Below are positions 1-45,784 of a DNA stretch of 64,000 nt, one piece after another. The notes beneath the pieces were generated by a model, which was given only the letters and a program-made list of their open reading frames with translations, was not told the origin of the DNA and made no database searches. Both the position numbers and the translations under genes were made by a program. This DNA comes from an uncultured Planctomycetia bacterium (lineage in GTDB: Bacteria; Omnitrophota; Gorgyraeia; 1-14-0-20-64-10), in NCBI GenBank assembly GCA_964597545.1, contig CAZQXN010000002.1:88234-152233 (forward strand). The letters are read 5' to 3'. Every line of letters begins with the position of its first letter. Position 1 is the first letter of the stretch.

Positions 1-7
1 CAACACG

Positions 8-4228: not shown

Positions 4229-7200
4229 TTGAAACGGCTGACAGCGGCATTCCTTGGTTTCTCTTTTGCCCTCTTTCCACAGGTTTTGCCAAAGGTTTGG
4301 GCGGCCGGGACCGACTTGCAAAAGGGGTCAGACCCCTTTACCCCCCGAAGGGGTCAGACCCCTACACTCAGACCTGCTCAGTCTGCAGATCAGAAGGAGA
4401 CCGAAGCCCGCCGGAAAAACCCTGTTTTGGCAGGACTGGAAGAGAGATTAACCGCTCCCTCCGGATTTGACAGACGGGAGTTTCTAAAACGGGGAATAGC
4501 GGGAATGGGGGCTGCAGGCTTGGGGTTGGCCCCTCTCCGGCATCTTCTGGCCCAGGCCGAGCGCGATCCGGAAAAAGCCGCACTGGTAGCGCGCGTTCGC
4601 CGGATGCTGAACCCCGACGATTACAAGGATTCGGTCCGGTTCATCGACAGGCAGCGGATTACAGGGCAGCCCCCTGTGATGCCGATCAACATTCCGGCCG
4701 AGGCCTTAGAGAGGTACCGCCGAGTGCGGGGCAGAGATTTTCGCGGGTTTAATTTCAACGGGCTTCACCGGAGTTACCGATCAGATCCCGATAACCCACA
4801 CTGGGCAGGGCCGGAAGGCTCTGCTCAGATGGCGAAATTCGGGAGGGTTTGGATTTATGATTCAGCCTTGGGTATCAAGGCCGAAGTGGGAGCCGCGCAG
4901 GCAGCCCTGGCCGATGGGCGAAGAGATGACGCCCTTGAACGGTTTAATCTCCTCTGGCGATCATCCCGTGCTTTGGTGGAATTGGGCAAGGACGAGGAGG
5001 CCCTTGGATTCTCCGGCGGCTGGCACTTTTCCTACAACACCGATGGCGACAGCTGGATTGACCCTCGTGCGCCCATGGGCGGGGTCTTGTGGGGCATCAA
5101 CGCTCTGTATGACGCCATCGGTTTTGTATTGACTGCCGACGATCCGGCCATCCGTTCGCATCGACAGGAGGCGCTGGAGCTGTTGGTCTGGGTCGACATG
5201 CTGGTTAAGCGGTTGGTCTTTTTCATGCAGGTGATGGACCCGGACGATCCCAGAGACGGCCTTATCCGGAACATGGTGTACAACAGCTTGATAGATGCAG
5301 GTCTTTCCATGGACGATGCCGGTTACCGCGTTTATGAGGGGCAGCCCAACCGAGCCGGTCAGTTTGTGATCTTTGAACACAATGCCGATTTGGCCGATGT
5401 TCTCCGCAACGCCGCTAAGGTCAATGCCGCAGCCGCCCTGATCGACGCCCGATTCCAGTCTCCGAAATTCCAGAAAGGGTTTATGGACGAGCTGCCGGTG
5501 CGGCACGAGCGGTTGCTCAATGCCCTGTGGGATAAGGCTTGGGTCGGGGACCACTTTGTCACCGCTATGGAGGCGGATGGAACCATCAACACTTCGGTAG
5601 CGCTTGACAACCAGACATGGGTTGCCGGGGTGTTTCTGCCGTACAGCGAGGATCGGGTCTGGCGAGCGCTCGACTATGCCTGGGAGGAATTCCGGACCAA
5701 GGGGCGCGATGGACGGATTGCCACCCGGTTGGGGGACTTGGTGCTGGAGGATGTTCCGGCTGCCGGCAGAAGGTGGGTTCAACAGCTTGCCGACGAGGAA
5801 ATTGCCGCTGTCCACTTCTTTGATTGGAATTTTAAGGACCCGTATGTGGTGGTGCCCGCTGCCCGCCGCCACAAGTTGATCGAGATGGTTCAACCCGAGG
5901 CGAACGAAGGCATTCGGGATCTGCTCATCCGGGTGGCGCTCGTGACGCGAGATCCTCAACGCCGAGAGGCGGCCCTCCGGCGGGCGGAGCTCATCACCAA
6001 GACCCTCTCCATGATCCGGAAGATCTACGGGGGGCTGCCCTATGCCACCAACTATATTCCGGATCTGATGAGCACGCTGCAGGCGATGGCGCCGGAGGCG
6101 AGTTTTGCGACCGTCTCGACCCGCTTGATGGGGGCGCCGGTCGCCCTGATCGGCACAGCTGCGCCGGATCACTTCACCTTCCAGGGGCGCAGGCCCGGCG
6201 AAGCTCCTGCGACGGTTACGCCCATGCGCGAGCCCGCGGTTGAGCCTGCTGTGCCCGCGGTTGAGCCTGCTGTGCCCGCGGTTGAGCCTGCTGTGCCCGC
6301 GGTCCCTGGCAAGCTGTCGGCAAAGGTGCTCGAGCTCAAGCCTGCCTACATGACACTCCAGCTTACAGTCCCCGAGCGCCTCAAGGGCAAGCAGTTCTTC
6401 GCCGTCGCCTTCATCAAGACCGACCAATGGTATCCCCAGCCTTCTATGAGAAAGAGCGAATTGATGAAGCGGGTGCGCTCGAGCGGCGAGGTCACCCTCA
6501 CGACCGTGGTTCCCCGTTCTCCCTTTGTCGGGGGCGGGATCCGCGGCCGGGCGGTTGCCCTCTTTGATAGCGAGGAGGCGTTCGACGCTTTCCTCAAAGA
6601 TTTTTCGAGGGCGGGCGATCGAGCGACCGCGCAGCACGCAGTCCAAATCTTTTTGATCAGCGAAGAGAAACAGGTAACGCCCACCGATCGACTGAGTTTC
6701 CATCACCCATCGATCAACAGCCCTTTGCTCAGCCGCAGCACCTTCCGTGGCCCTGCAGTTGAAGTGGGGCCTGGTTCAGCAGCGTTGGCCGCTGCCCAGC
6801 AGCCTCTCTCGGATACTTTGTTGGCCGAGGTTCTCTCGCCGGCGCCGGCCGGTTCTATGGGGAATCTGCCTCTGGCGATGGGGACCTCGGCCCGACTCTC
6901 TGAAGCGCTCCTCTCGGGCTTGGAAGAAGCCGTTGGTTTCAGCCACACCATTCAGAAGAACCATCTCAGCTTGTCGCAATTGACCGGAAGATTGGAGGAG
7001 CTCATCACCATCGCCGAGGACACCATCAACCAGTCCGGCTTTGCCGACGCCTTGGCCTCCGGCCACGGCACCGTGGTCCTCCCGCCGGCTGAAGCCGGCC
7101 GCCTCTTCGGCGCCCCCATTGCCCTCATCACCCAGGCCGGAGCACCCACCTCAGCCCCTGAGGCGCTGATCTTTGCCGACACCGACCTGATAGGAGTCAA

Positions 7201-7537
7201 CACCACTGCCTTTAGCCCCTTTGCTACTATTCCGGTGGGCTCCACAGGAGACGACATCCTCTCTGCCCTCCCTGAAGTCCGCAAAGGGGATTTGGTTGTT
7301 GCCCAGACTGACGACCTCACCCAACCGCAGATCACCGCCGCCCTAAACAACACCTTTGCTCCGGGCCAAGCCCCCCGAGTGATCATGGCCGGCTTAGAAG
7401 ACGTTCAGACCCTCACCGTCAAGGCCATCGTCACCCTCTGGACCGACCCGAACCTGCCGGATGTCATGGTGATCGGCGTGGTCCTCGAGCTCAAATCCAG
7501 AGCCGGCAACACCTACCTGCTCATCGTTGCGGCGTAA
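4229..7537 (+). CDS. Large secreted protein (1102 aa from the track's TTG start). It has a Sec-like N-terminus, or alternatively a Tat-type signal if translation starts at TTG 4427. It contains an (AVEPAVP)n tandem repeat and a C-terminal ~180 aa domain paralogous to the C-terminus of the first ORF.
   Basis: N-terminus 'MKRLTAAFLGFSFALFPQVLPKVWAAG'. Internal 'SGFDRREFLKRGIAGMGAAGLGLAPLRHLLAQA' looks like a Tat signal. C-terminus 'RLEELITIAEDTINQSGFADALASG...LLIVAA'. Confidence 0.6.
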   Translation: MKRLTAAFLGFSFALFPQVLPKVWAAGTDLQKGSDPFTPRRGQTPTLRPAQSADQKETEARRKNPVLAGLEERLTAPSGFDRREFLKRGIAGMGAAGLGLAPLRHLLAQAERDPEKAALVARVRRMLNPDDYKDSVRFIDRQRITGQPPVMPINIPAEALERYRRVRGRDFRGFNFNGLHRSYRSDPDNPHWAGPEGSAQMAKFGRVWIYDSALGIKAEVGAAQAALADGRRDDALERFNLLWRSSRALVELGKDEEALGFSGGWHFSYNTDGDSWIDPRAPMGGVLWGINALYDAIGFVLTADDPAIRSHRQEALELLVWVDMLVKRLVFFMQVMDPDDPRDGLIRNMVYNSLIDAGLSMDDAGYRVYEGQPNRAGQFVIFEHNADLADVLRNAAKVNAAAALIDARFQSPKFQKGFMDELPVRHERLLNALWDKAWVGDHFVTAMEADGTINTSVALDNQTWVAGVFLPYSEDRVWRALDYAWEEFRTKGRDGRIATRLGDLVLEDVPAAGRRWVQQLADEEIAAVHFFDWNFKDPYVVVPAARRHKLIEMVQPEANEGIRDLLIRVALVTRDPQRREAALRRAELITKTLSMIRKIYGGLPYATNYIPDLMSTLQAMAPEASFATVSTRLMGAPVALIGTAAPDHFTFQGRRPGEAPATVTPMREPAVEPAVPAVEPAVPAVEPAVPAVPGKLSAKVLELKPAYMTLQLTVPERLKGKQFFAVAFIKTDQWYPQPSMRKSELMKRVRSSGEVTLTTVVPRSPFVGGGIRGRAVALFDSEEAFDAFLKDFSRAGDRATAQHAVQIFLISEEKQVTPTDRLSFHHPSINSPLLSRSTFRGPAVEVGPGSAALAAAQQPLSDTLLAEVLSPAPAGSMGNLPLAMGTSARLSEALLSGLEEAVGFSHTIQKNHLSLSQLTGRLEELITIAEDTINQSGFADALASGHGTVVLPPAEAGRLFGAPIALITQAGAPTSAPEALIFADTDLIGVNTTAFSPFATIPVGSTGDDILSALPEVRKGDLVVAQTDDLTQPQITAALNNTFAPGQAPRVIMAGLEDVQTLTVKAIVTLWTDPNLPDVMVIGVVLELKSRAGNTYLLIVAA
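6236..6306 (+). repeat. 21-bp tandem repeat (gcggttgagcctgctgtgccc), ~3.3 copies, in frame, encoding (AVEPAVP)n
   Basis: Direct reading of the sequence: 'PAVEPAVPAVEPAVPAVEPAVPAVPG'. Confidence 0.9.
6992..7537 (+). repeat. ~545-bp direct repeat of 3596..4141 (roughly 85-90% nt identity; includes an exact 37-mer ggaggagctcatcaccatcgccgaggacaccatcaac). It encodes the shared C-terminal domain of the two large ORFs.
   Basis: The nt and aa alignments of the two 3' ends were read directly. Confidence 0.85.
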
Positions 7538-7559
7538 GAGACGAAGTTGCGATAAAATA

Positions 7560-10019
7560 ATGGCTATGCTCCCTGCAAAAGGGTTTAAGCGGTGCGGTTT
7601 ACTGCTGGCCCTCCTCCTGCTTGTTCTTTTGGGATTGCGGATTTCAGGCCCGCAGTCGGATACAGACATGGAGAAACATCCCTCCTTTGTTGAGCCCTCA
7701 GGGGCACCAGCCATTGCTCCCTCCCTGCCTGAGCCCTGCAGGGAGAAGGGCAAGGAGTTGCCCGATCCGATCCTGGTGGATGATTTCGAGACCGGCCAGA
7801 CCCACGGCCTCTTTGCCCAGCGCAAGAACCGCCTGGATGCCTTCCAGGGAACCTGGGCCAGGCGCCCATCCTATACAGTGATCACCAAGGTGCTGGACAG
7901 CCGGCCAGGTTCGGTGGGTAATGCCCTGCGCCTGGAGTACAACAAGGTGGGCGGCTGGTGCGGCTGGTACACCCTCTTAAACGGCATTGACATCTCCTGC
8001 CACAATGCCTTGACCTTCTGGGTTAAGGGAGAGGAAGGGGGGGAGCGCTTTGATATCGGCCTGGCCGATGACACGATGCAGGATTTGCAGATTGACGCCG
8101 TCTACGTCGGATCCATCAAATCTTTTCTGCCGGAGGGCATCACCACCCAATGGCAGCAGGTCAAGATCCCGCTGCAGTCCTTAAGATCGGAGTTGAATCT
8201 GACCCGGATGGGCTCTTTGGTTCTTTGGTTTAGGTACGAAGGCAAGGGGGCGATTGAGGTGGACGACCTTGTCTTTGCCTTTGATGAGGAGATAGAACGG
8301 ATCTTGGAGGAGAATATGCCCCGGGCCCAGCTGGATATCCGCTCTCCCCGGGCCATGTGGGTTTGGAAGTATGATCCGATCAACAATCTGGATGTGCGCG
8401 AGGAGCTCTTAGCCTTCTCTGAGCGCACAGCGATCCAGCGCTTCTATCTCTATCTGGGCGAGGAGCCCATTCCCCAGACGCCTGAAAATTACCAGCAAGG
8501 GTTGGCTGAGTTCCTCCGGCAGTGCCACGCACAGGGGATTGAGGTCCAGGCCCTTCAGGGCAACCCCGTTTGGGCCCTCAAGCGCCACCACTCCAAGGTG
8601 TTGAAGTGGATTGGGGGATTCTTGACTTACAACCGGACGCGCCCCCCCGAGGAATGGATTGACGGGGTGCACATGGACATTGAGCCGTATCTGACCTCTG
8701 AGTGGGAGACCGGCGATCAGAAGAAGCTTAAAGAAGAGTTTTTGGAGCTGATGGCCTCCTGCCGGGAGTTGATCGATGAGGAGAATGGACGCACCGGCGC
8801 TCGCGCCTCGACAGGCTCAGCGCGGACGGAAGATGCCGCGCTGCGGCCGTGGGCTGTGGGGCCGACGGCAGCAATCCCCTTTGTGATGGGGTTGGCGATC
8901 CCGCTTTTCTACGACCGGGAGCCGGAGATGGAGCGTAAACTTCTCGCCTTTCTCGATTACGCTGCCCTCATGGATTACTACGATACCGCCCGGGATATCA
9001 TTGATGCCGGTTGGTCCCATGTTGAGATGGCAAGGGAATTGGGCGTTGCGATGGTGATCGGCATTGAGACCCAGGATTTGATCCAGATGTCGCAGGGCAA
9101 GCGCCGCAACACCTTCATTGAAGAGGGATGGAACGATATGGAGGCGGAGCTGGCCGAAGTCACCAACGCCTTTGCGGGTAACCCCGCCTTTGACGGGTTG
9201 GCGATCCACTGTTATTACGCCTATAAGATTCTTCAGCGGGGGCGAAATGTCCCCACCCGGGAGCGGACCGGTAAGCTCCCCGGATTCACCGCCGCGGAGT
9301 TGCCTTTAGCCGCTCAGATTGACGGGGATCTCTCGGAATGGAACCAAGCCCAGTGGACGCGCATCTTCTTGCGCAAGCAGGCGGTCTATGGCGTCGGGGC
9401 GTGGGAGGGACCGAACGACTATTCCTTCAAGGTCGCTGCCGGCTGGGAGCCGGAGGCCCTCCTGCTGGCCTTTGATGTGACCGACAACACCCACATTCAA
9501 GAAAAACAGAAGGCCGACATGTGGGAGGGGGACCACCTTGAGCTTTGGCTGGATACCGATCTGGAGGGGGACTACGCCGAGGCCGTCAACTCCTCCGACG
9601 ATTTTCAGCTTGGGCTCTCCCCCGGGAATTTCAGCACCTTGCCGCCGGAGGCGCATGTGTGGGTTCCGTCGGTGGATCCCGATGCCTTGGCGGGCATCCA
9701 GGTGGCTGCCCGTAACACCGAAGCCGGATATGCCTTAGAGGTGCGCCTCCCCACAGATTTTCTATTTCAGAATGTTCGAAAGCGCGTAGGGGTGGGACCG
9801 GTGCACTCGGAGATGCCTAAACGGATTACCCCGGAGATGTTCGCCCTGCAGGAGGGGGTGCTCCAGTCGCATCAGCTTACGGCAGGGTTTCGGATGGGGA
9901 TCATGGTGGACGGCTCAGATTCGGATCTGGCCCGGCACCCTCAGAAATGCGTCCTCTCCACCTCAGAGGAACGGCAGTGGGGGGATCCGACCACCTTCAA
10001 TATCTTGGAGTTGCGATGA
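7560..10019 (+). CDS. Membrane-anchored or secreted multidomain glycan-active protein. It contains a 'WCGWYTLL' CBM-like beta-sandwich (~nt 7900-8290), a TIM-barrel glycoside-hydrolase-like domain (~8340-9200) and a CBM9/DOMON-like C-terminal domain (~9300-9800).
   Basis: ATG at 7560 gives 'MAMLPAKGFKRCGLLLALLLLVLLGL' (signal/TM). Motifs 'GGWCGWYTLL...FWVKGEEGGERFDIG...TQWQQVKIPL'. 'GIEVQALQGNPVWA...GVHMDIEPY' is paralogous to ORF 12607..13602. The track start at 7527 overlaps the preceding gene and is less likely. Confidence 0.55.
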   Translation: MAMLPAKGFKRCGLLLALLLLVLLGLRISGPQSDTDMEKHPSFVEPSGAPAIAPSLPEPCREKGKELPDPILVDDFETGQTHGLFAQRKNRLDAFQGTWARRPSYTVITKVLDSRPGSVGNALRLEYNKVGGWCGWYTLLNGIDISCHNALTFWVKGEEGGERFDIGLADDTMQDLQIDAVYVGSIKSFLPEGITTQWQQVKIPLQSLRSELNLTRMGSLVLWFRYEGKGAIEVDDLVFAFDEEIERILEENMPRAQLDIRSPRAMWVWKYDPINNLDVREELLAFSERTAIQRFYLYLGEEPIPQTPENYQQGLAEFLRQCHAQGIEVQALQGNPVWALKRHHSKVLKWIGGFLTYNRTRPPEEWIDGVHMDIEPYLTSEWETGDQKKLKEEFLELMASCRELIDEENGRTGARASTGSARTEDAALRPWAVGPTAAIPFVMGLAIPLFYDREPEMERKLLAFLDYAALMDYYDTARDIIDAGWSHVEMARELGVAMVIGIETQDLIQMSQGKRRNTFIEEGWNDMEAELAEVTNAFAGNPAFDGLAIHCYYAYKILQRGRNVPTRERTGKLPGFTAAELPLAAQIDGDLSEWNQAQWTRIFLRKQAVYGVGAWEGPNDYSFKVAAGWEPEALLLAFDVTDNTHIQEKQKADMWEGDHLELWLDTDLEGDYAEAVNSSDDFQLGLSPGNFSTLPPEAHVWVPSVDPDALAGIQVAARNTEAGYALEVRLPTDFLFQNVRKRVGVGPVHSEMPKRITPEMFALQEGVLQSHQLTAGFRMGIMVDGSDSDLARHPQKCVLSTSEERQWGDPTTFNILELR

Positions 10020-11251
10020 ATCTTTCTATCGCACGATGCATCTTAAGGGTGGGACTAACAGCTTCCCTTGTGGTCACGGGCCCTCAGCGGTCAGCAGCCC
10101 GTGCTGAGGAAGGGGTGCCTGCTGCCGAATCCCCGGCTTTTGCGGGCACTCCATTGGGAGAGATACCCCCCTTTCCGGAGGGGACCCAACTGATTCCCAG
10201 GGTTGCCCGAGTGGCCGAACGGGGCCGGATCGGGGGATATGCGATGCGGCCGTCGAAATATGGTGTATACTATGACGAGCGTAACCACCGACCCGGTTCC
10301 AAGGAAGGGATCTACGTCCGCTACCGCAAGAAACCTTACCCCTCCTTCTGCGGCGCCTATTTGGTCATTGCGGGGGATCTCTCTGCCCATGCCACCATGA
10401 CCTTTTGGGTCAAGGGGGCCAAAGGCGGGGAGGCCTTTGAGATCGGCATGAATGATGTCGTCTCCAACCAGCGGGAGGATGCGGTGATGGTCGGCTCCAT
10501 CTATCGGTACCTTCCGCAAGGGGTGACCACTCAGTGGCAGCAGGTTAAGATTCCGTTGGAGGATTTTTTCGGTGCGGACCTACGCCGGGTCTTCAGCGTG
10601 GTCTTCAACTTCAACGAGACCGGAGAAGGGATCTTCTGGATCGATGAAGTCGCCTTTCATGAGGAGCAGTTGGTCTTCCGGGAGGATGAGATCCTAAGCC
10701 AAGGCCATCTCCTCGTGGACAATTTTGACCACGCCGATGTGAATCTCTTGGGACGCAAGGCCAATGCCTACAAGCGGCTGCCCTCGGTATGCCGCTTTGA
10801 TCGGGTGGAGTCGCCGCGGGTAGGGGACCATGGCCGGAGCTTGCGCTTAAGCTTCGAGAAGAAGTCGACCGGTTGGTGCGGCTATTACACGCTGCTCAAC
10901 CAGATTGACGGCAGCTACTATGACCTGACCCTCTACAAGGAGGTTGCTTTTCAGGTGCGCGGGGGCAAGGGCGGCGAGACCTTCGAGGTCGGAATGGCGG
11001 ATCGATCCTGGCAGACGATCGGCGATTCCGTCAAGGCCGACGCCATCGAGAAATACCTCCCTGCGGGGGTGACCACCCAATGGCAGGAGGCGGTCATACC
11101 GCTGGATGATTTCGGCAAATTGGATTGGACGCAGATGGGTTCCGTGGTCTTTAACTTCCATCGTCCCAGCGCCGGAGAGCTGTACATTGATGATCTGCGT
11201 TTGATCCGCAAAAGCGAGGAGGATCTTCTGGAAGCATGGGACGAAGAATGA
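10016..11251 (+). CDS. Secreted protein with two tandem CBM-like 'WCGYYTLL' beta-sandwich domains
   Basis: ATGA overlap with the upstream stop. Signal 'MNLSIARCILRVGLTASLVVTG'. Two copies of 'FWVKG/FQVRGGKGGE.FE.GM.D...TTQWQ(Q/E)..IPL(E/D)DF'. Confidence 0.6.
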   Translation: MNLSIARCILRVGLTASLVVTGPQRSAARAEEGVPAAESPAFAGTPLGEIPPFPEGTQLIPRVARVAERGRIGGYAMRPSKYGVYYDERNHRPGSKEGIYVRYRKKPYPSFCGAYLVIAGDLSAHATMTFWVKGAKGGEAFEIGMNDVVSNQREDAVMVGSIYRYLPQGVTTQWQQVKIPLEDFFGADLRRVFSVVFNFNETGEGIFWIDEVAFHEEQLVFREDEILSQGHLLVDNFDHADVNLLGRKANAYKRLPSVCRFDRVESPRVGDHGRSLRLSFEKKSTGWCGYYTLLNQIDGSYYDLTLYKEVAFQVRGGKGGETFEVGMADRSWQTIGDSVKADAIEKYLPAGVTTQWQEAVIPLDDFGKLDWTQMGSVVFNFHRPSAGELYIDDLRLIRKSEEDLLEAWDEE

Positions 11252-11862
11252 TGAGACAGGCGGCCGGTATCGGCCTGTGTACCATCGCAGTGGCCCTCTC
11301 GTGCGCTCTTGCCTTGGCGGCAGAGCCGCTTCTCATTGATGACTATGAGGCCGGTGCTGCCAATCGTTTGGGGGGCCGCTCCAACACCTACGTCTCCGCC
11401 CCTTCCCGGGCGTTGGCGATGAAGACCGACAAAGAGGCGCACGCCGGAAAGAGCGCCTTGATGATCAAATACGACAAGAAGAACCAGGGGGGCCCTTATG
11501 GCCAGGGGGGGTGGTGCGGCTACTATACCCTCTTGAAGGTGGGGTCGCGCTACTTTGACGCCACCGAATACAGGGCTTTGACCTTCTGGATCAAGGGGAG
11601 CAGGGGGGGTGAGAATTTCGTGCTGGGGGCTGCCGATCGCCACTGGGAGCAGGTGGGCGATTCGGTGAAGTCCGAGCCGATCGGCAAATATCTGGCCGAA
11701 GGCAAAATCACCGCCGACTGGCAAAAGGCAGTGATTCCCCTGGATACCTTCATGATCGACATGCAGGAGCTTTCCTCCGTTTCCTTTTGTTTTGAGGGTT
11801 CGGTCTTCCCGGCCGGGGCAGGCAAGGGGACCCTCTTTGTGGATGATCTCACACTGGAATAA
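11248..11862 (+). CDS. Secreted single-domain CBM-like ('GGWCGYYTLL') protein
   Basis: ATGA overlap. Signal 'MMRQAAGIGLCTIAVALSCALALAAEP'. Domain motifs 'FWIKGSRGGENFVLG..DRHWEQVGDSVKSEPIGKYL'. Confidence 0.6.
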   Translation: MMRQAAGIGLCTIAVALSCALALAAEPLLIDDYEAGAANRLGGRSNTYVSAPSRALAMKTDKEAHAGKSALMIKYDKKNQGGPYGQGGWCGYYTLLKVGSRYFDATEYRALTFWIKGSRGGENFVLGAADRHWEQVGDSVKSEPIGKYLAEGKITADWQKAVIPLDTFMIDMQELSSVSFCFEGSVFPAGAGKGTLFVDDLTLE

Positions 11863-11891
11863 TAAGCGGAATAATGTTAGGAGGTGTACGA

Positions 11892-12599
11892 ATGAGAAGG
11901 TTGAACGATGCATTAAAACGATGGAGCGCCCTCTCCGTCAAGCTGGCTGCGGCCGGTTTGGCGGTCGGGCTGCTTGCCCTCTCTGCCCGGGCGGCGGCTT
12001 CTCCGCTGCTGGTGGATGATTTTGAGGGGGAAGAAGTGATCAAGAATATGCTTGGCAATCGAGCCAACGTTTTCCTCAAGGCGCCCTCCAAGGCGATGGT
12101 CAGCCGTCGCTCGGAGCAGGTGAACGGCCAGGAAAGCCAGGTCTTGATGCTTCGTTATGACAAGCGCAACTCCGGCGGTCCGTATGACGGCGGGGGGTGG
12201 TGCGGCTATTACACGCTGCTCAAGTCCCCGGGTGCCTTGGTGGCGCCCACCGACGAGAACCCCAATCCCGAACCCCTGGGAGAACAGTACCTTGACGGCA
12301 GCGAGTTGACTCAGGTTTCCTTCTGGGTGCGCGGTGAGAAGGGGGATGAGAATTTTGTCTTAGGGATGTCTGACCGGCACTGGGACAAGATCGGAGATTC
12401 CGTCAAGTCCGAGGAGATCGGCAAGTATCTGCCGCAGGGACGCATCACCACCGAGTGGCAGAAGGCCGTGGTGCCGCTGGACGAGTTCTTCATTGACTAC
12501 GCCCAGTTGGCGGCCGTCTCCGTTGTCTTCGAGGGAGATCTCTTCCCGGAGACCGGCCACGCAGGGACCCTCTACATCGACAACATCACACTTGAATAG
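11892..12599 (+). CDS. Secreted single-domain CBM-like ('GGWCGYYTLL') protein, paralog of the previous ORF
   Basis: AGGAGG Shine-Dalgarno sequence 9 nt upstream of ATG 11892. Signal 'MRRLNDALKRWSALSVKLAAAGLAVGLLALSARAAASP'. 'FWVRGEKGDENFVLGMSDRHWDKIGDSVKSEEIGKYL'. Confidence 0.6.
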   Translation: MRRLNDALKRWSALSVKLAAAGLAVGLLALSARAAASPLLVDDFEGEEVIKNMLGNRANVFLKAPSKAMVSRRSEQVNGQESQVLMLRYDKRNSGGPYDGGGWCGYYTLLKSPGALVAPTDENPNPEPLGEQYLDGSELTQVSFWVRGEKGDENFVLGMSDRHWDKIGDSVKSEEIGKYLPQGRITTEWQKAVVPLDEFFIDYAQLAAVSVVFEGDLFPETGHAGTLYIDNITLE

Positions 12600-12606
12600 G
12601 TCCTGA

Positions 12607-13602
12607 GTGAAGCCAATCTCACCGACTGTCCGTCCCTTCGGGCGGGCTTGCTGCGGGCGGAGGTGGAGGGGGGCAATTGCGCTGGTTTTGGCCGGCTGCC
12701 TCCTCTTGCCCTCCGCCCTGTCAGCTTCTGGGGTTTCTGCCGCGGGCACAGCCTCCAAGGAGCAGGGCGCAGAGCGGCTTGCCCTGTGGGTGTGGGATGC
12801 GCGTGTGGTGACAGAGCCCCGCGCCCAGCATCGCCTGCTCAATTTCTGCAGGCGAGGCGGAGTGGGCATCCTGTATCTGTCTGCCTATGATCTGCGCGCT
12901 CCCATGGATAAGGCTTACCGGTCCTTTAACCGGCGGGCCCATGAGGCCGGGTTGGAGGTCCACGCCTTGGCCGGAGATCCCCGCTGGGCCAAGAGCCGAT
13001 ATCATCACATCCCCTTGAGATGGGCCGACTCGGTTCGCGCCCTCAATCAGAAGGCTCGCCCTGAAGAACGGTTTGACGGACTGCACACCGACATTGAGGC
13101 GTACCTGCTCTCCAAAAGCTGGCGGGAACGCCCCGAGGTGCTCTTGGGCAGCTACCTGGAGTTGACCCGCAAGCTCGCCGGCAAGGCGTGGGAAGCCCCG
13201 CATCCCATCGCCTATGGCGTGGATATCCCCTTCTGGTTTGACGACGACATCTCCTATCGGATTCTTTGGAACGGAAGCATTAAGCCTCCCTCGCATCACG
13301 TGATGGATTTCTCGGACTTTGTCACGGTCATGGCCTATCGGAATTTTGCCGAGGGCCCGGACGGCACCATCCATCTGGTGCGCCTTGAGATGGACTATGG
13401 CGATAAGATCGGCAAGAAGGTCTTTGTGGGACAGGAGACCCAGGAAGACCTTTTCCCCACCTACATTACCTTCGGCGGCACTTCTTGCCGAGTTCTCAAG
13501 CGCGAGATGGGGAAGGTCCGAAGCGCCTACCGGGATCGGACCAGTTTCGGGGGCTTTGCCATCCATCATTATGACAGCTATCGGAAGCTGTGCAGCCAAT
13601 GA
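12607..13602 (+). CDS. Secreted TIM-barrel glycoside-hydrolase-like protein. It is paralogous to the central domain of ORF 7560..10019.
   Basis: Signal 'GAIALVLAGCLLLPSALSASG'. 'GLEVHALAGDPRWA' and 'GLHTDIEAYL' match 'GIEVQALQGNPVWA' and 'GVHMDIEPYL' in the ORF 7560..10019 paralog. The start codon is uncertain. Confidence 0.45.
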   Translation: MKPISPTVRPFGRACCGRRWRGAIALVLAGCLLLPSALSASGVSAAGTASKEQGAERLALWVWDARVVTEPRAQHRLLNFCRRGGVGILYLSAYDLRAPMDKAYRSFNRRAHEAGLEVHALAGDPRWAKSRYHHIPLRWADSVRALNQKARPEERFDGLHTDIEAYLLSKSWRERPEVLLGSYLELTRKLAGKAWEAPHPIAYGVDIPFWFDDDISYRILWNGSIKPPSHHVMDFSDFVTVMAYRNFAEGPDGTIHLVRLEMDYGDKIGKKVFVGQETQEDLFPTYITFGGTSCRVLKREMGKVRSAYRDRTSFGGFAIHHYDSYRKLCSQ

Positions 13603-16660: not shown

Positions 16661-18622
16661 ATGAGCCTTCCCAAGTTTGACATCGTAAAGGCCTTGGAGG
16701 AGGCATCCTCCAGTTCAGAGCTTGTCTGTGGCGTCAGATCCGCCAAGAAGCGGACGGCACTGTTAGGCGCCAAGCCGGCCGCTTTACGCAAGGCAGGCTT
16801 TAAACCCCTGACCCCAGCCCAGATCAAAACCCTCAAAGCCCAGGGCAACGCAGCCCAGGACTGGAAGGAGATCTGGGTCGGCTCCGGTTTTGACCCGAAG
16901 CGTGTTCGGCGCTCATCCTTTGCGGGGCCGGTTCTCTTGGAGGCGGCCTCCGGGACCGTCAAGGTCGAGGGGGTAACCTTTCCCAGGGGGCTGTCCCATG
17001 CGACCCTCTCCCACTGCGTGGTGGGCAAGAATGCCCTCATCCAAAATGTCCGGCTTTTAAACCGGACCGTGGTTGAGGAGGGGGCAGTGCTCTTTGATGT
17101 GGGGACGGTCACCAAGGGCAAGCGTGATACCTTTGCCAACGGCCTGGAGGTGTTGGTTGCCGTAGAGACCGGCGGGCGTGAAGTTCCCCTCTTTGCGGAG
17201 CTGACCGTTGACGGGGCTGAGGTGCTCTCTCGCTCCCGCGCAGACAAGGCCCTTTTGGCCGGTTACCAGGAACGGCTGGACAGCTACGTCAAGAGCGTCA
17301 CCTTGCCCTTCAATGTGATCGGCAAGGGGGCTTGCGTGCTTCATACCCCTCGCCTGCAAGATGTCTTCTTGGGAACGGCCGCTGTCATTGACTCTGCCCA
17401 GCAGGTGGAGGATGTGACGGTCTTAAGCAACGAGGAAGAGGCGACCGAGATCTCTCAAGGGGCAATTGTGAAGTCCTCCATCCTCCAGTGGGGTTCTGAA
17501 GTGACCTCCGCTGCTTTGGTGGATTCCTCCCTCTTAACCGAGCACTCCCATGTGGAGCGCAAGGGGTTGGTGACCCATGCGATTTTGGGTCCCAACACCG
17601 GTGTGGCCGAAGGAGAGGTGACCTCAGCCCTATTGGGTCCCTTTGTGGGTTTCCATCACCAGTCCCTCTTGATTGCGGCTCTCTGGCCTGAGGGCAAGGG
17701 CAACGTCGGCTACGGCGCCAACATCGGCTCCAACCACACCGCCAAGGCTCCGGACCAGGAGATCTGGCCCGGGGAGGGAACCTTCTTCGGGCTGGGGGTG
17801 AACATCAAGTTCCCCTCGGACCTGACAGGATCTCCCTACACCATCATCGCCAGCGGGGTGAGCATGCTGCCGCAGAAGGTGGAGTTTCCCTTCTCCCTCA
17901 TCAACACGCCTGCGGTGACGCAGCCTAAGCTCTCTCCGGCCTACAATGAGATCATGCCGGGCTGGGTCCTCTCGGACAACATCTACATGGTCAAAAGGAA
18001 CGAGGGCAAGTATCAGAAGCGCAACAAGGCCCGCCGCTCCAAGTTTGTCTTTGAGGTTTTCCGCCCCGAGGTTGTGGATCTGATGAAGGATGCCCGAAAG
18101 CGCCTTGAGGTCAAAGAGCCCCAAGAGGCGTATACCGGAAAGCAGATTGCTGGTCTTGGCAAGAATTACATGTCAGAGCGCAGCCGCCAGAAGGGGATCG
18201 AGACCTACACCTTCTACATCGGTTGCTATGCCCTCTTGGGACTCAAGCGGCAGTTGGAGGCATTCGTCCACAAGGGTGAGACTTCCCAGATTCCGGGGAT
18301 TCTCGAGCGCAAGAGCGACTGCGCCCGCTGGGAGCATGAGCGGTTGATCCTGGCCGAGGAATTCTCTGGCAAGGATCTCAAAACCCTGCTCATGGATCTG
18401 GTGGAGCGACAGGAGAAGATTGCCGAGCAAGTGCAAAGCTCCAAGGAAAAGGACGACCGCAGGGGCGCTGAAGTGATCTCCGATTACACCGAGGCGCATC
18501 CCCCCGCATCCGAGGACGGCTTTGTCCAGGAAACCCGAAAGGCCACCGACACCCTCAAGCAGGAGGTCCAGCGCCTAGAGGGCATCATTCAAGACCTCTC
18601 CGCACAAGCAACAACCACCTAA
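16661..18622 (+). CDS. 653-aa protein with left-handed beta-helix (hexapeptide-repeat-like) segments and a C-terminal coiled coil. Function unknown.
   Basis: Repeating short beta-strand periodicity ('GKNALIQNVRLLNRTVVEEGAVLFDVGTVT', 'GVAEGEVTSALLGPFVGFHH'). C-terminus 'LKQEVQRLEGIIQDLSAQ'. No catalytic assignment is possible from the sequence alone. Confidence 0.35.
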   Translation: MSLPKFDIVKALEEASSSSELVCGVRSAKKRTALLGAKPAALRKAGFKPLTPAQIKTLKAQGNAAQDWKEIWVGSGFDPKRVRRSSFAGPVLLEAASGTVKVEGVTFPRGLSHATLSHCVVGKNALIQNVRLLNRTVVEEGAVLFDVGTVTKGKRDTFANGLEVLVAVETGGREVPLFAELTVDGAEVLSRSRADKALLAGYQERLDSYVKSVTLPFNVIGKGACVLHTPRLQDVFLGTAAVIDSAQQVEDVTVLSNEEEATEISQGAIVKSSILQWGSEVTSAALVDSSLLTEHSHVERKGLVTHAILGPNTGVAEGEVTSALLGPFVGFHHQSLLIAALWPEGKGNVGYGANIGSNHTAKAPDQEIWPGEGTFFGLGVNIKFPSDLTGSPYTIIASGVSMLPQKVEFPFSLINTPAVTQPKLSPAYNEIMPGWVLSDNIYMVKRNEGKYQKRNKARRSKFVFEVFRPEVVDLMKDARKRLEVKEPQEAYTGKQIAGLGKNYMSERSRQKGIETYTFYIGCYALLGLKRQLEAFVHKGETSQIPGILERKSDCARWEHERLILAEEFSGKDLKTLLMDLVERQEKIAEQVQSSKEKDDRRGAEVISDYTEAHPPASEDGFVQETRKATDTLKQEVQRLEGIIQDLSAQATTT

Positions 18623-18626
18623 GCCT

Positions 18627-18675
18627 GGTACCGGGTACAAATGCTCTTTTTGAGTGTACCCGGTACCGGTTTTTT
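18627..18675 (+). terminator. Perfect 13-bp-stem hairpin (ggtaccgggtaca-N15-tgtacccggtacc) followed by a T7 run. It is a Rho-independent terminator for the upstream gene and also the left REP-like element flanking the RAYT gene.
   Basis: Arms 18627-18639 and 18655-18667 are exact reverse complements. 'ggttttttt' follows immediately, 5 nt after the stop at 18622. Confidence 0.75.
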
Positions 18676-18708
18676 TAGTGCATAGATTGCATTATTAGCA
18701 TACAATTT

Positions 18709-19281
18709 ATGGATATGGGAAGGCAACATCGAATAGTAAGCGAGACTGGCTGCTACCATGTTGTCGCGCGCGGCAATAGCCAAAAAGCGGTCTTCCGGCA
18801 GAAGCAAGATTACTGGGCGTATCGCCATCTCTTAGGGGAATATGGGAGGCGCCATGCCGCACAGATCTACCACTATTGTTTAATGAGTAATCATATCCAC
18901 CTGGCGCTGCGCATTGAGAGCCTGAAGCAGCTTAGTCAGATGATGCATGACGTGCAACGTGCATATTCCCGGCATCGCCAGATGCAGGATCAAGTAACCG
19001 GACAATTGTGGCAGGGGCGGTTCCAAAGCTACCCCATCAATGATGAAAACTATTTTTTGGCATGCGGGCGCTATATTGAACGTAACCCCATAGAAGGTGG
19101 ACTAACAGCCGACCCAGGAAATTATCCTTGGTCAAGCTATCGGTTTTATGCGTATGGCGTAAAGGACTGGATTGTAGTTGCTTCGCCGCTCTATGCAAGT
19201 ATGGGCAGGGTGCCCCAGGAGCGTCAGAGTGCCTATCGCACCTTCATTGACAATGGTACCGGGTACAAATGCCCTTTTTGA
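18709..19281 (+). CDS. IS200-like / REP-associated tyrosine (Y1, HuH) transposase
   Basis: 'YHVVARGNSQKAVF', HuH motif 'CLMSNHIHLAL', 'YIERNPIEGGL...YPWSSY' (catalytic Tyr region). The annotated 3' end reads into the right hairpin, so the true stop may lie slightly upstream or the hairpin is translated. Confidence 0.7.
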   Translation: MDMGRQHRIVSETGCYHVVARGNSQKAVFRQKQDYWAYRHLLGEYGRRHAAQIYHYCLMSNHIHLALRIESLKQLSQMMHDVQRAYSRHRQMQDQVTGQLWQGRFQSYPINDENYFLACGRYIERNPIEGGLTADPGNYPWSSYRFYAYGVKDWIVVASPLYASMGRVPQERQSAYRTFIDNGTGYKCPF

Positions 19282-19305
19282 GTGTACCCGGTACCGGTTT
19301 AGGGG

Positions 19306-21378
19306 TTATTTCCAGTGGGAGGACCAGAGCAGCCAGATCCGGGAGTCTTGGGTCCGGACGTGGTCGTTGTCCCGGTCCTTGTCGTAACGGTATTCGCCGT
19401 TGAGCTCCAGGCGCCACTCGTCAAAGACGTCGTAGCCTAAGCTCAAGCGGGTTGCCAGCAGGGGGCGCTGGGCCAGGTCCGAGTCAAAGTCAGCCAGGTG
19501 CAGATAGACCGAAGGGGTGGCCGACCACTTCCGGCGCTTGTCGCGGCTCAGCTTCCGGTAGGGCCAGATGAAGTTGGCCCCGAAGGAGTGGCCCGTGGCA
19601 TGGCGCAGGTTGCTCTCGGTGGCCGGGACCGGGTCGATGAGCTTGCCGTCCTGAAAGGTGTAGTTAAGCCCGGCAGAGGCGTTGGACCAGAGCCTCAAGG
19701 AGCCCGACGCATTGACCTCGTGCTGCAGGCCGTGGTGCCGGGTCTCATTGAACAGCTCATCGAAGAATTCATAGCGGTACCGGGCGGAGAGGAGCGCCCG
19801 CTTGAATAAGGGCAGGGCCAGGCGGGAGCCGACGGTCCAACGGATCTCATCCTCGAAGGCGGTGCCGTTTTCATGCCGTTCCTCTTTGAGAGGGTGCTCC
19901 CACCAGTACGTTCCAAAGGCCGACCACTGCAGGTGCCCCAGATGATGGGCCAACTCTGCCCGCAAGTTGGTGGTGCGCACCTTGGAGGGGCGCGTGGCCG
20001 GACCCGGAGAGGAGGTGGTGTCGGTCATGCTTGCCCTCATGCGCGGTTTTGGCCAGCCGGCGGGCACCTTGATCCCGAGGTCTGCGTGATACCATGCCTG
20101 CCGGGTCTGCTCTACGTTGTCCTCATCGTCCAAGTCGTTGCGGTACCAACTGGCAGCCAAGTCCAGATCAAAGGGTCCCAGCGGCGCGAAATTGAACTTG
20201 TGGTGCGTGAACTGCCGGCCGGCGCTTAAGCCCTTGACGTTGTTGACGGCACCCGAGGGCAGGTCTGCCAGGAGCAGGTAGTCGGGTCCGGTGCGCTCAA
20301 CGACGGCGTCCCACTTGATCCACGGCTGGATGAAGGTGGACTGCACCAGGAAGGCAAGGTCCTTGAGTTTCTCGTTGTTGCCGAAGCGGTCTTCCTTCAA
20401 GTTGTCATCGGTCTCGCTGTAGCTCTCGTATGCCTTGACGAACCAGGTGTCGGGGATGAAGGTGATCTCCTGGTTTAAGTTGTAGACGGTGTTGTCGCGG
20501 CGCTTATTGGCGATGTTGACCGCATGGATTCTCCCGGTGTCCCGCGTCTTGACGACACTGGCCCCCAGCCGCACGCGGTCTTCAATGATCTTCCAGCGGC
20601 TGCGCACCCCCATGACGCTCCTGGGGTAGATGTATTCGTCGCGGTCCTCCAGCCAGTAAGGATACCCTCCGTAGAGGGCCTGGAAGTCATGCCGCTCGCC
20701 GGTCAAGAGCAGGTTGATCCCCCTCAGGCGCGAGCTCCTCAAGAAATAATAGCTGGGGAAGGTGGCGGTATCTCCCAACCCCAGATGGGAAGCGCCCTCG
20801 GCGCCGTATTCACCGGGTTTCTCGAAGAAATCGGCCAGGAGGGTCCGGTAGCGCAGGTCGTTGTGGCCGTTCCTAAAGCCCTCCAGGTCCAGGCGGATGT
20901 GCGCGTCGATGCCGTCGCGGCCCTCCATGAAGGCTTCCAGGCGCTGGTTGATCTGCCAGCCATGGCTGTCAAAATCTTGGTCGGACTGTCTGTCGGCGTC
21001 GCGGCGCTGTCGAAGGACCCTCAGGCGCTCATGGATGTGGTGCTTGCGGCGCAGAGCGCGCTCAATCACAAACTCCCTCTCTTGAGGGTTCTGGACTCCG
21101 GCCATGGCACGCTCCACGTACTCCTGGAAGAGGGACTGGCTTTGAGTTTCTTTGGAGAGCTTGCCCAGCTCAGCCAGCGCCTGCTCGAACCGCCCCCTGC
21201 GCATCATGTGATCCACCCGCGCCAAGAGAAGGGTCTCTTGCGAGGTCAGGGGCTTTGCGTAAGCAGGCGGAAGGTTGAGGGTGAAAGAGGAAAGGAGCAG
21301 CAGGCAGCAGGCAGCAGGCAGCAGGCAGGCAATCGCTCCTGCTTTCTGCTTGCCGCTTTCTGCCTCCCGGATTTTCAC
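19306..21378 (-). CDS. Outer-membrane protein with an N-terminal helical (TPR-like) periplasmic region and a C-terminal beta-barrel (PgaA/BcsC/Slam-like architecture)
   Basis: Likely GTG start at 21378 giving the signal 'VKIREAESGKQKAGAIACLLPAACCLLLLSSFTLNLPPAYA'. Helical region 'ETLLLARVDHMMRRGRFEQALAELGKL'. The C-terminal half is rich in alternating aromatic residues and ends '...RIWLLWSSHWK'. The track start at 21651 overlaps the upstream gene and is rejected. Confidence 0.45.
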   Translation of the reverse strand: MKIREAESGKQKAGAIACLLPAACCLLLLSSFTLNLPPAYAKPLTSQETLLLARVDHMMRRGRFEQALAELGKLSKETQSQSLFQEYVERAMAGVQNPQEREFVIERALRRKHHIHERLRVLRQRRDADRQSDQDFDSHGWQINQRLEAFMEGRDGIDAHIRLDLEGFRNGHNDLRYRTLLADFFEKPGEYGAEGASHLGLGDTATFPSYYFLRSSRLRGINLLLTGERHDFQALYGGYPYWLEDRDEYIYPRSVMGVRSRWKIIEDRVRLGASVVKTRDTGRIHAVNIANKRRDNTVYNLNQEITFIPDTWFVKAYESYSETDDNLKEDRFGNNEKLKDLAFLVQSTFIQPWIKWDAVVERTGPDYLLLADLPSGAVNNVKGLSAGRQFTHHKFNFAPLGPFDLDLAASWYRNDLDDEDNVEQTRQAWYHADLGIKVPAGWPKPRMRASMTDTTSSPGPATRPSKVRTTNLRAELAHHLGHLQWSAFGTYWWEHPLKEERHENGTAFEDEIRWTVGSRLALPLFKRALLSARYRYEFFDELFNETRHHGLQHEVNASGSLRLWSNASAGLNYTFQDGKLIDPVPATESNLRHATGHSFGANFIWPYRKLSRDKRRKWSATPSVYLHLADFDSDLAQRPLLATRLSLGYDVFDEWRLELNGEYRYDKDRDNDHVRTQDSRIWLLWSSHWK
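21296..21330 (-). repeat. Heptanucleotide SSR (gcagcag)x4.5 on the plus strand (ctgctgc on the coding strand) inside the signal-peptide-coding region of the outer-membrane protein gene
   Basis: 'gcagcaggcagcaggcagcaggcagcaggcaggc'. It encodes 'LLPAACCLLLL'. The unit is 7 nt, so a copy-number change would frameshift. Confidence 0.7.
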
Positions 21379-28266: not shown

Positions 28267-28304
28267 GAGTCTGACGCTTTGGTACCGGCAAGAGACCCAT
28301 TGCT

Positions 28305-28331
28305 GTACCAAAGGGTCAGACCCTTTGGTAC
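28305..28331 (+). repeat. 27-bp near-perfect palindrome gtaccaaagggtcagaccctttggtac in the permease-nagA spacer (REP-like; a related half-copy lies at 34553-34579 after the GH94 gene)
   Basis: Self-complementary except at the central base. It shares GTACC ends and a 'gggtcagaccc' core with the 4324-4362 repeats. Confidence 0.75.
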
Positions 28332-28343
28332 AAGTGAGGATGG

Positions 28344-29546
28344 ATGATGCGTAGGCGGGAGTGGTTTCTAGGCAAGGTGGCCACCCCCCTTGATCTTTTC
28401 GAGCAGGGTGCGGTGGGTATCGAAGGGGACCGGATTTTCTATGTCGGCGAGGCTCAGACCGCACCCAGGAGCCCCCAAGAGCCTGCGCGCACTTTCAACG
28501 GTTGGATCACCCCGGGCATGGTTGACGTCCATGTCCACGGCGGCGGCGGCGGTTCCATCCTGGAAGGAACTCCAGAGGCGGTTATCCAAGCCAGCCGCGC
28601 TTTAGTCGCACACGGGGTCACCAGCTTCCTGGCTACGACCGTCACCGGTGAGGATCTCAGCCGCTGCCGGCACCTTGAGGTGGCCGCTGAGACAGCGCAA
28701 CGCCCACCCGACGATGGGGCAAAGATCCTGGGGATCCATGTCGAGGGGCCCTATGTCAACATGGCTCGCCACAATATGATTCATCCAAGCCGGGTGTGGC
28801 CGCCGGAGCGAAAAAGCTTCGAGGGGCTGCTCAAACTCATGCAGGGAAAGCTCAAGATGATGACCATTGCCCCCGAGCTACCGGGCGCCCTGGATTTGAT
28901 CCAGCACTTGAAGGAGAATGGTGTCGTGGCCTCTCTGGGTCACACCGAGGCAACCCTGGAAGAGGCCCGGGCCGGTTTTGCCGCAGGCATTCAACACGTC
29001 ACTCATCTCTACAACGCCATGCAGGGTCTCAGCCACCGTGAGCCCGGCGCGCTGGGAGCTGTCTTGATGGATCACGCGGTGACCGCGCAGATCATCGCGG
29101 ACGGGGTTCATGTGCACCCGGATCTTTTGCGCTGGACTTGCCGGGTTTTGTCTCCGGAACGCCTGGTCTTGATGACCGATGGCCTGCCCTCCTCAGGGTT
29201 GCCGCAAGGGGAAGGGGAGTATGAGGGGGAGCCTTACACCGTGGTTGATGGTGCTGCTTGGTCCAAAGGGGGGGCGGCCAAGGGCAAGTTGATCGGCACC
29301 ACCTTGGCTCTAGATCAGATGGTTGTGCGTGCCATGCGCTTCATGGGGGTTGATTTCCCTCAGGCGGTCGCCATGGCGTCGCTGTACCCGGCCCGCGCGC
29401 TGGGAATGACACATGAGGTCGGCTCCCTGGCCGCAGGCTGCAAGGCCGACTTGACCCTCTGGAGTGAGGATTATCAACTGCAGGAGACCCTTTTGAGCGG
29501 TAGGACGGTCTGGCAGAGAAAGGAAGCACACTGCAATGTCTCTTGA
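28344..29546 (+). CDS. nagA: N-acetylglucosamine-6-phosphate deacetylase
   Basis: 'GMVDVHVHGGGGGS', 'ILGIHVEGPYVN', 'MTIAPELPGA', 'SLGHTEATLEEARAGFAAGIQHVTHLYNAM', 'REPGALGAVL', 'IADGVHVHPD', 'LMTDG', 'SLYPARALGM'. These are collinear with E. coli NagA. Confidence 0.9.
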   Translation: MMRRREWFLGKVATPLDLFEQGAVGIEGDRIFYVGEAQTAPRSPQEPARTFNGWITPGMVDVHVHGGGGGSILEGTPEAVIQASRALVAHGVTSFLATTVTGEDLSRCRHLEVAAETAQRPPDDGAKILGIHVEGPYVNMARHNMIHPSRVWPPERKSFEGLLKLMQGKLKMMTIAPELPGALDLIQHLKENGVVASLGHTEATLEEARAGFAAGIQHVTHLYNAMQGLSHREPGALGAVLMDHAVTAQIIADGVHVHPDLLRWTCRVLSPERLVLMTDGLPSSGLPQGEGEYEGEPYTVVDGAAWSKGGAAKGKLIGTTLALDQMVVRAMRFMGVDFPQAVAMASLYPARALGMTHEVGSLAAGCKADLTLWSEDYQLQETLLSGRTVWQRKEAHCNVS

Positions 29547-45774: not shown

Positions 45775-45784
45775 CCTTAAAATC

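Follow-up and report, generated by a model that had tools for sequence, protein, structure and literature searches.

Why a single transposase gene should sit exactly between the stop codons of two convergent genes, bracketed by two nearly identical hairpins, is the question raised by a short segment of a 64,000-nucleotide stretch (hereafter the window) of contig CAZQXN010000002.1, from an uncultured Planctomycetia bacterium that the GTDB lineage places in Omnitrophota. We consider it likely, with a probability of roughly 70%, that positions 18605-19300 form a REPtron-type cassette, in which a gene for a REP-associated tyrosine transposase (RAYT) lies between two REPIN-like doublets of a 13-nt repetitive extragenic palindromic (REP) sequence, GGTACCGGGTACA, the presumed cognate of the enzyme. 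A first-pass annotation made from the letters of the window had read the locus in this way and is right in outline; the replacement of the cassette at a fixed locus, described below, lay outside it.

The transposase gene occupies positions 18715-19281 of the forward strand, encodes 188 amino acids and is present in one copy within the window. The 190-residue open reading frame (ORF) initially reported, 18709-19281, exists as described, and the NCBI call and the homologues use the second ATG, at 18715 (MGRQ...). The HUH signature and the C-terminal tyrosine claimed for it were both located: NHIHLAL is encoded at 18889-18909, with the HUH codons at 18892-18900 (His62 at 18892-18894, His64 at 18898-18900), and the catalytic Tyr122 at 19072-19074 within GRYIERNP. 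A search with the Pfam model Y1_Tnp (PF01797), which the first-pass annotation had proposed as a check, gave 50.8 bits (E 2.2e-13, cutoff 23) over residues 16-126, the sole Pfam match, and the best NCBIfam family was REP_Tyr_transpos (NF047646) with 67.7 bits, compared with 18.2 bits for transpos_IS200. Residues H62, H64, Y122, N126 and P127 are invariant among 15 homologues. The single protein found nothing in the PDB when searched with phmmer; a profile built from the 15 homologue sequences ranked E. coli TnpAREP (4ER8) first (E 1e-6), ahead of ISDra2 TnpA, and in the alignment to 4ER8 the active-site residues coincide, H62/H64 with H59/H61, Y122 with Y115 and N126 with N119. The AlphaFold2 model (pLDDT 89.4, pTM 0.86) leads to the same structure, as 4ER8 is the top Foldseek match (E 1e-9, TM 0.66/0.75) and other structures stay at about 1e-5. 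All of the top 30 PDB matches of the model are Y1 transposases, and the IS608, ISDra2 and IS200 enzymes reach a TM of only about 0.45. The tyrosine motif YIERNP follows the class 2 pattern (Y-x-x-x-N-P), not the Y-x-x-x-Q of IS200, according to the criterion and the motif table of Quentin et al. 2018 (PMC6006769). The protein is thus a RAYT-class Y1 transposase and not an IS200 TnpA. Set against that table, its motifs NHIH, WQ, YIERNP and WSS place it in class 2, the RAYT-like class, and as judged from these motifs subclass 2.1 is probably the nearest. Longer relatives in the family reach 221-232 amino acids. Relatives of 28-38% identity are carried on plasmids, in keeping with the elevated rate of horizontal transfer proposed for Bertels Group 1 (PMC5581495). 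Viral contigs contained only relatives of 23-37% identity, none of them with the motif, and phage records gave one weak match.

The two flanking palindromes are the second component. The left 47-nt repeat (18626-18672, forward strand) contains a hairpin at 18627-18667 with a 13-bp stem and a 15-nt loop, and the right one (19254-19300, forward strand) a hairpin at 19255-19295, so the two nearly identical 41-nt hairpins noticed at the outset do bracket the gene. Each has the form GGTACCGGGTACA-N15-TGTACCCGGTACC, and the repeats are identical at 46 of 47 positions (98%) in direct, not inverted, orientation. Folded as single-stranded DNA, the left copy yields -17.3 kcal/mol (z = -6.6) and the right copy -14.2 kcal/mol (z = -3.2). 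Inverted arms of 13 nt recur with spacers of 15 nt at the RAYT gene, 13 nt at position 45929 of the window and about 12 nt in copies from metagenomes, which is the layout expected of REPINs. The final nine codons of the transposase (NGTGYKCPF*) are overlapped by the right hairpin, which has the stop codon TGA (19279-19281) inside its loop and is not followed by a T-run. The left hairpin is followed directly by GG and seven Ts (18668-18676, the Ts spanning 18670-18676); its tail, ...GTACCYGGTACCRGTTTTTTT, is conserved in a relative (L001). Conservation was also seen for the junction ...TTATTTCCAGTGGGAGGACCAGAGCAGCC beside the convergent gene. The left hairpin and its T-run, whose presence bears out the original description, have the form of an intrinsic terminator and probably terminate the upstream gene. 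A terminator scan did not report this hairpin; the scan accepts loops of 3-8 nt and the loop here is 15 nt long.

The cassette fits exactly between two convergent stop codons. Upstream lies a gene for a DUF4954 protein of 653 amino acids (16661-18622, forward strand), whose stop codon TAA (18620-18622) is 5 nt from the stem of the left hairpin. PF16314 is annotated on a 91%-identical orthologue of this protein. Among its named homologues, the best ones (64-67% identical) belong to Candidatus Omnitrophica metagenome-assembled genomes (MAGs), which points to a probable Omnitrophota host. Downstream, the convergent gene occupies 19306-21225 of the reverse strand (639 amino acids according to the calls in relatives; the mechanical ORF extends to 21651), and its stop codon is 10 nt from the end of the right hairpin. 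The low-GC pocket pointed out in the first-pass annotation is real, with an AT-rich leader of 25% GC over 18673-18708; it is not confined to this leader and extends over the 0.7-kb cassette, as the RAYT gene has 51% GC and the flanking genes 59-62%. In the leader proper (18677-18714, forward strand) there is no Shine-Dalgarno sequence and no match to the sigma-70 consensus, a promoter scan gave no sigma-70 site there, and an Rfam search of the whole window returned no known RNA family. Positions 18680-18705 contain TGCAT twice and lack the strong AAGGAGG ribosome-binding site present in the relative L120. Palindromes of the ATGCAT type also occur in the AT-rich RAYT leaders of L120 (TTATGCATAA, about 3140-3165) and L004 (ATTGCTAATATAGCAAT, about 320-350); such short palindromes could be a shared promoter or operator.

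The locus is not peculiar to this genome. A RAYT gene is found at the same position in five lineages, although the closest homologues are only 50-53% identical. Each homologous gene precedes the 3' end of the same convergent gene, and those of L120, L002 and L158 also lie downstream of the DUF4954 gene; at four of the five loci with a RAYT, the 3' end of the convergent gene directly adjoins the cassette. At the L158 locus, about 0.9-1 kb separates the RAYT-side hairpins from the convergent gene (5336-6276), compared with 10 nt in the window. The three loci L120, L002 and L158 share the succession of a hairpin with a T-run, an AT-rich leader, the RAYT gene and a hairpin over its 3' codons; the left hairpin with T-run is clearest in the window and L120, and L004 has the right hairpin only. 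The C-termini of the relatives' transposases translate the hairpin (...TGYK...VPGT), an overlap seen in every close homologue. What differs is the palindrome itself. The flanks of the relatives' genes carry doublets of a sister sequence, GGTACCWGGTACC, and this variant surrounds the L120 and L158 alleles. The central pair of the stem is G-C in the window, A-T in L120 and L158, and T-A in L002. In L120 and L002 the arm that lies in the coding region is degraded, and the twin hairpins of the window are perfect.

Comparison of the window with L120 revealed how differently the cassette and its surroundings have evolved. The flanking genes are 86-96% identical in protein and 87% in DNA, with a proportion of synonymous differences (pS) of 0.35-0.41 and a synonymous divergence (dS) of 0.47-0.59, versus 49% protein identity, 57% DNA identity, a pS of 0.92 and a saturated dS for the RAYT gene. 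Flank identity stays at 85-93% up to position 18599 and again from position 19286; these sharp steps indicate that the divergent block is the hairpin-to-hairpin unit. Among the five syntenic copies, RAYT identity is flat at 50-63% irrespective of the distance between the hosts, and the GC content of the gene is about 50% in hosts of 57-67% GC. Three relatives, L178, L176 and L179, whose DUF4954 proteins are 67-71% identical, have no cassette at all, so that the comparison with RAYT-free relatives suggested by the first-pass annotation does yield empty sites; in L178 the convergent stop codons are 4 nt apart, and no copy of the motif was found in the roughly 58 kb of non-redundant sequence of these three loci. 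Empty sites together with a replaced allele identify the cassette as an accessory insertion between convergent genes. The comparison indicates that at least one allele replacement took place after the lineages of the window and L120 split, the cassette having been replaced and not inherited. The replacement probably occurred in the window lineage, since the dispersed REPs of the window are of the L120/L158 type and its own twin hairpins are perfect. Fast divergence in place was considered as the cause of the 49% identity and rejected, because the synonymous sites of the RAYT gene are saturated and those of the neighbours are not. A long imported recombination tract was also rejected, as the flanks lose no identity close to the cassette.

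The first-pass annotation had further listed seven related palindromes in the window as signs of REP proliferation, and this picture needed revision. Four of the sites (32071, 45785, 45929 and 45955) carry the sister motif GGTACCWGGTACC, in the form AAATCGGTACCWGGTACCAA, which is not the arm of the window's own RAYT; a fifth, 61143, is a related hairpin, and the remaining two, 28305 and 34553 (GTACCAAAGGGTCAGAC...), are members of another, unrelated family of palindromes. Hairpins restricted to this one locus had been named as the finding that would speak against the proposal, and this holds for the exact 13-nt arm, which occurs only at the RAYT gene within 64 kb; it does not hold for related sequences, as the arm with at most two mismatches has 15 matches compared with 0.5 expected, and the core GGTACCNGGTAC has 16 (each site scored on both strands) compared with 1.7 expected. 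It is the GGTACCWGGTACC variant that is dispersed in the window; the cassette's own hairpin stands only at its gene within the 64 kb, so that its proliferation is not seen here.

The sister copies, none of them assigned to a strand, differ in completeness and setting. The copy at 32065-32101 consists of GGTACCTGGTACC and a truncated second arm and is intergenic. A single REP, AAAATCGGTACCAGGTACCAA, at 45779-45799 lies in a 46-nt gap between two giant ORFs and is identical to the 21-mer to the left of the RAYT gene in L001 and L120. The doublet at 45923-45969, which forms a hairpin (13-bp stem; -14.5 kcal/mol, z = -5.8), is in frame within a 5062-residue ORF, directly after the signal peptide, and the related hairpin at 61143-61172, AGTATCGGGTACA-AGCT-TGTACCCGATACT with the core CGGGTACA, is in frame after the signal peptide at the corresponding place in a paralogous giant ORF. 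Three of the seven listed sites (45929, 45955 and 61143) are consequently intragenic. Such in-frame siting inside giant ORFs is possible because all six reading frames of the REP core are open.

The giant ORFs lie in a row, 36505-45774 (3089 amino acids), 45821-61009 (5062 amino acids) and a third that starts at 61032 and runs off the window. The N-termini of the second and third are paralogous signal peptides (77% identity over 93 nt), and the peptides encoded by the hairpins that follow them are KIGTRYQDQKSVPGTK and SIGYKLVPDT, respectively, the hairpin being kept despite the differing sequence. Very long proteins have been reported in Omnitrophota, and the products of 3089 and 5062 amino acids are consistent with this. 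The second palindrome family has its own history. An 84-nt block at 28268-28351 is missing in the 87%-identical L120, whose flanks join directly; it is made of GTCTGACGCTTTGGTAC, GTACCAAAGGGTCAGAC and CCTTTGGTAC, folds with -20.4 kcal/mol and has the look of another kind of miniature palindromic element, recently inserted or deleted. At 34552-34582, a related copy runs over the end of the ORF 32118-34568. Further repeats lie in the first part of the window: a perfect 21-nt tandem repeat, GCCCGCGGTTGAGCCTGCTGT, in more than three copies at 6232-6303 inside the ORF 4229-7537; segments of 143-300 nt, 85-90% identical, at 3593-4098 and 6992-7494, at the ends of the ORFs 8-4141 and 4229-7537; and a module of about 70 nt at 7953-12482 that recurs in the four ORFs following 4229-7537. 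Domains of the CBM30/CBM9 type are found in relatives at that ORF neighbourhood.

A wider view of the sister motif came from metagenomes. A scan for the 19-mer AATCGGTACCWGGTACCAA detected 62 exact copies on 54 contig stretches, mostly as doublets AATCGGTACCAGGTACCAA-N7-ATCGGTACCTGGTACCG on contigs of 62-66% GC from few samples. These contigs contain roughly 30-40 distinct REP contexts, many of them directly after a stop codon; a sorting into intergenic and intragenic copies by stop-to-stop ORFs and GC at third codon positions was unreliable, as it misclassified known sites of the window. Among these contigs is L158, the syntenic RAYT locus with this REP on its flanks, and apart from it no second RAYT gene was found among the 54 stretches. 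Each of the close homologues was likewise found on one or two contigs. For the relatives, the classical REPtron/REPIN relationship of a RAYT gene and dispersed copies of its flanking palindrome is hence shown. The same 19-mer is also present on contigs of 29-41% GC, one group of which has 35-41% (L122, L128, L141, L142, L144, L145, L147, L148, L153-L156, L164, L166 and L169), some of them mixed with GTACCCGGTACC-type arms, which indicates that the motif is common to organisms of very different base composition. A scan of genome contigs with the pattern GGTACCNGGTACN{1,31}GTACCNGGTACC, which is permissive and diluted by tandem repeats of the GGTACCC type, listed among its matches Y1 genes of 26-36% identity beside GGTACCNGGTAC hairpins in Pseudobdellovibrio (as twin direct doublets), in a MAG labelled Deltaproteobacteria, in Acidobacteriota, in Acidimicrobiales and in Geminicoccaceae. 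The Y1 gene of L009 is flanked by the motif as twin direct doublets. The motif flanks Y1 genes in at least five phyla; the groups in which it goes with them include Omnitrophota, Bdellovibrionota, Acidobacteriota, Actinomycetota and Alphaproteobacteria.

If it acts like E. coli TnpAREP and the TnpA enzymes of IS200/IS605, the RAYT would bind the hairpins when the DNA becomes single-stranded, Tyr122 would cleave beside the hairpin with His62, His64 and Asn126 holding the metal ion, and the rejoining of strands would copy or move hairpin units. The cassette itself may move at its hairpins in the same manner. The left hairpin with its T-run probably shields the transposase from read-through transcription, and the right hairpin may close both convergent genes. 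The simplest reading of the two palindrome variants is that the lineage, which already had an older population of REPs, gained a new RAYT allele together with the hairpin variant belonging to it, since the scattered GGTACCWGGTACC REPs match the RAYT flanks of relatives and not those of the window's own gene. A broader proposal, which we put forward tentatively and at somewhat less than even odds, is that the RAYT unit is itself a cassette that is exchanged horizontally and in a site-specific manner. One convergent-gene gap in Omnitrophota would be occupied over and over by divergent alleles that bring their own hairpin variants, whether by insertion or by displacing the previous allele; the REPs of a displaced allele would be orphaned, and the window would have caught such a changeover.

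Several observations weigh against a REPtron-type cassette in the window. The score of 67.7 for REP_Tyr_transpos is below the curated equivalog cutoff of 80. The 41-nt hairpin of the gene has no further copy in 64 kb, and the mobilisation of that particular hairpin is accordingly unproven. The GT[AG]G tag is missing at the hairpin feet (...GCCT/GGTACC and ...CAAT/GGTACC), and the equivalents of the residues with which TnpAREP reads GTAG, E100, H101 and R104, are not conserved; these two features fit each other. The flanking units are direct, unlike the inverted ones of many described REPtrons, and more distant members of the family have long terminal inverted repeats instead of REPs. The dispersed metagenome REPs are tied to the L158 organism by shared sample and GC only, and the binding and cleavage ascribed to the RAYT derive from its family membership.

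The most serious competitor, although an unlikely one, is an autonomous IS200-like insertion sequence, a self-mobile unit of about 0.7 kb with a strong site preference and an active, selfish transposase. Hairpins of the same orientation at both ends as in IS200/IS605, a length of about 680-700 bp, a terminator-like left hairpin, sharp borders, an empty site, the replaced allele, a GC content below that of the host in every genome examined and the plasmid-borne relatives of 28-38% identity would all suit such an element. It is difficult to reconcile with one copy in 64 kb and close homologues on one or two contigs each, with the same convergent gene being adjoined in all five lineages, with solo hairpin doublets that far outnumber RAYT genes in the relatives' metagenomes, and with a protein whose YIERNP motif is of class 2 and whose fold and profile are clearly nearer to TnpAREP. 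The opposite extreme, a domesticated RAYT inherited vertically and evolving very fast in place with no replacement, draws on the position conserved across five lineages and on the description of RAYTs as single-copy and vertically inherited (PMC5581495). We regard it as improbable, given a pS of 0.92 compared with 0.35-0.41 in the neighbours, an identity independent of host distance that changes in sharp steps at the cassette edges, and the missing gene in interleaved relatives. The vertical inheritance described for Bertels Groups 2 and 3 is not what was found here, as the pS contrast, the flat identities and the RAYT-free relatives all depart from it; replacement and absence in relatives do not fit a simply domesticated gene.

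Two further explanations would dissolve the system altogether. If the palindromes were host terminators or protein-binding operators, their adjacency to a transposase gene would be coincidental, and the resemblance of the left hairpin and T7 to an intrinsic terminator, as well as the many dispersed copies just after stop codons, would be accounted for. This is very improbable, since the motif flanks Y1 genes in at least five phyla and all close homologues have it over the 3' codons of the RAYT gene. Moreover, the right copy lacks a T-run, some of the copies are inside ORFs, and in RAYT-free relatives both hairpin and motif are missing from the junction. The least credible explanation, which we all but dismiss, is an assembly artefact in which the 47-nt repeat mis-joined a foreign fragment into the contig. 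The length of the repeat is near assembly k-mer sizes and the source is a MAG; nevertheless, the gene order is repeated in independent JGI (two samples), Logan (two runs) and ENA assemblies, and the left and right hairpins are non-identical in those independent loci.

RAYT/REP systems are well established, and the basic finding is in this respect an ordinary one in a little-studied phylum. The palindrome itself is new: GGTACCNGGTAC represents a REP sequence type with no GTAG/CGTC tag and no stop codon in any frame, and the searchable open-access literature yielded no description of it as a REP. The TIRYT-like branch of the family (TIRYTs are discussed below), nearest to subclass 2.1, had no reported REP association before. 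Empty, occupied and replaced versions of one site, with borders at the hairpins defined to the base, make up a clean natural experiment, and the comparison bears on the question of whether RAYTs are strictly domesticated and vertical or still mobile as cassettes. Should the tentative proposal of an exchanged cassette be true, RAYT/REPIN systems would be less strictly vertical than currently pictured, and TIRYT-class proteins would be linked to a cross-phylum, stop-free family of REPIN-like elements. The window and its relatives also supply concrete substrates for biochemistry.

Among known systems, the REPtron of E. coli, TnpAREP with its flanking REPs and bacterial interspersed mosaic elements (BIMEs; Nunvar 2010; Ton-Hoang 2012; Messing 2012, PMC3479197), is like the window cassette in its Y-x-x-x-N-P Y1 HUH enzyme, which gives the best profile and fold match, in its gene, of which the 64 kb of the window have one copy, and in bracketing palindromes with scattered relatives, the REPs being paired as hairpin-forming doublets (REPINs). 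It differs in that the window RAYT is only 17% identical to 4ER8 over the structural alignment, that the window REP is a near-palindrome based on a KpnI site, GGTACCNGGTAC, with no 5' GT[AG]G tag, and that the window doublets are direct, the right one lying over the stop codon, around a gene that is not vertical between close relatives. The REPINs of Pseudomonas fluorescens SBW25 (Bertels and Rainey 2011, PMC3116915) likewise consist of two inverted REPs and a short spacer that form a hairpin, with the same sequence flanking the RAYT; they are over-represented and mostly located just 3' of genes. The window REP has another sequence in another host phylum, is stop-free in six frames and is also intragenic in frame.

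The likeness to IS200/IS605 elements (IS608, ISDra2) comprises the HUH/Tyr core fold, a unit of about 0.7 kb, and subterminal hairpins in the same orientation at both ends, of which the left-end one can block read-through. The differences are YIERNP in place of Y[IV]ENQ, 188-190 amino acids with a C-terminal extension compared with a core of about 150, the weak match in sequence (18 bits) and structure (TM about 0.45), the absence of tnpB, and one copy within 64 kb at a fixed locus.

The closest protein lineage is that of the tyrosine transposases associated with terminal inverted repeats, the TIRYTs of TIRtrons (Di Nocera 2013, PMC3733652), which Quentin et al. 2018 suggest to be TnpAY1 subclass 2.1, or Bertels Group 1 (PMC6006769, PMC5581495), a subclass reported to be devoid of REP-like sequences. 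Their published signature (NHVH or NH[YF]H, W[EQ], YIELNP and an SS tail motif) is probably the nearest to that of the window RAYT, with NH[VI]H, WQ, YIE[LR]NP and a WSS tail as the common pattern, and the patchy distribution, the plasmid relatives and the signs of horizontal transfer fit Group 1. Two family members, L188 (47% identical) and L189 (41%), have terminal inverted repeats of 32-34 nt with the right arm over the stop codon, and the L188 repeat holds GGGGACAC, fitting the TIRYT motif GGGGWSAS (Di Nocera 2013), as well as CGGTACCGGGT. The L189 locus (1-12642, Omnitrophota MAG GCA_016209275.1), where the repeats are 34 nt long, has an RHS/TcdB-type toxin gene as a neighbour, and its RAYT relative also lies among Gp49/HTH_3, HTH_17-Fic and PLDc_2 genes, an island-like setting unlike the DUF4954 locus. 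The window protein, with 188-190 amino acids compared with about 238, has no distal C-terminal helix-turn-helix, and it is surrounded by local hairpin doublets of a dispersed family, with no long inverted-repeat pair and no GGGGWSAS in the window. The protein lineage is therefore TIRYT-like, and the clade to which the window belongs uses local hairpin doublets.

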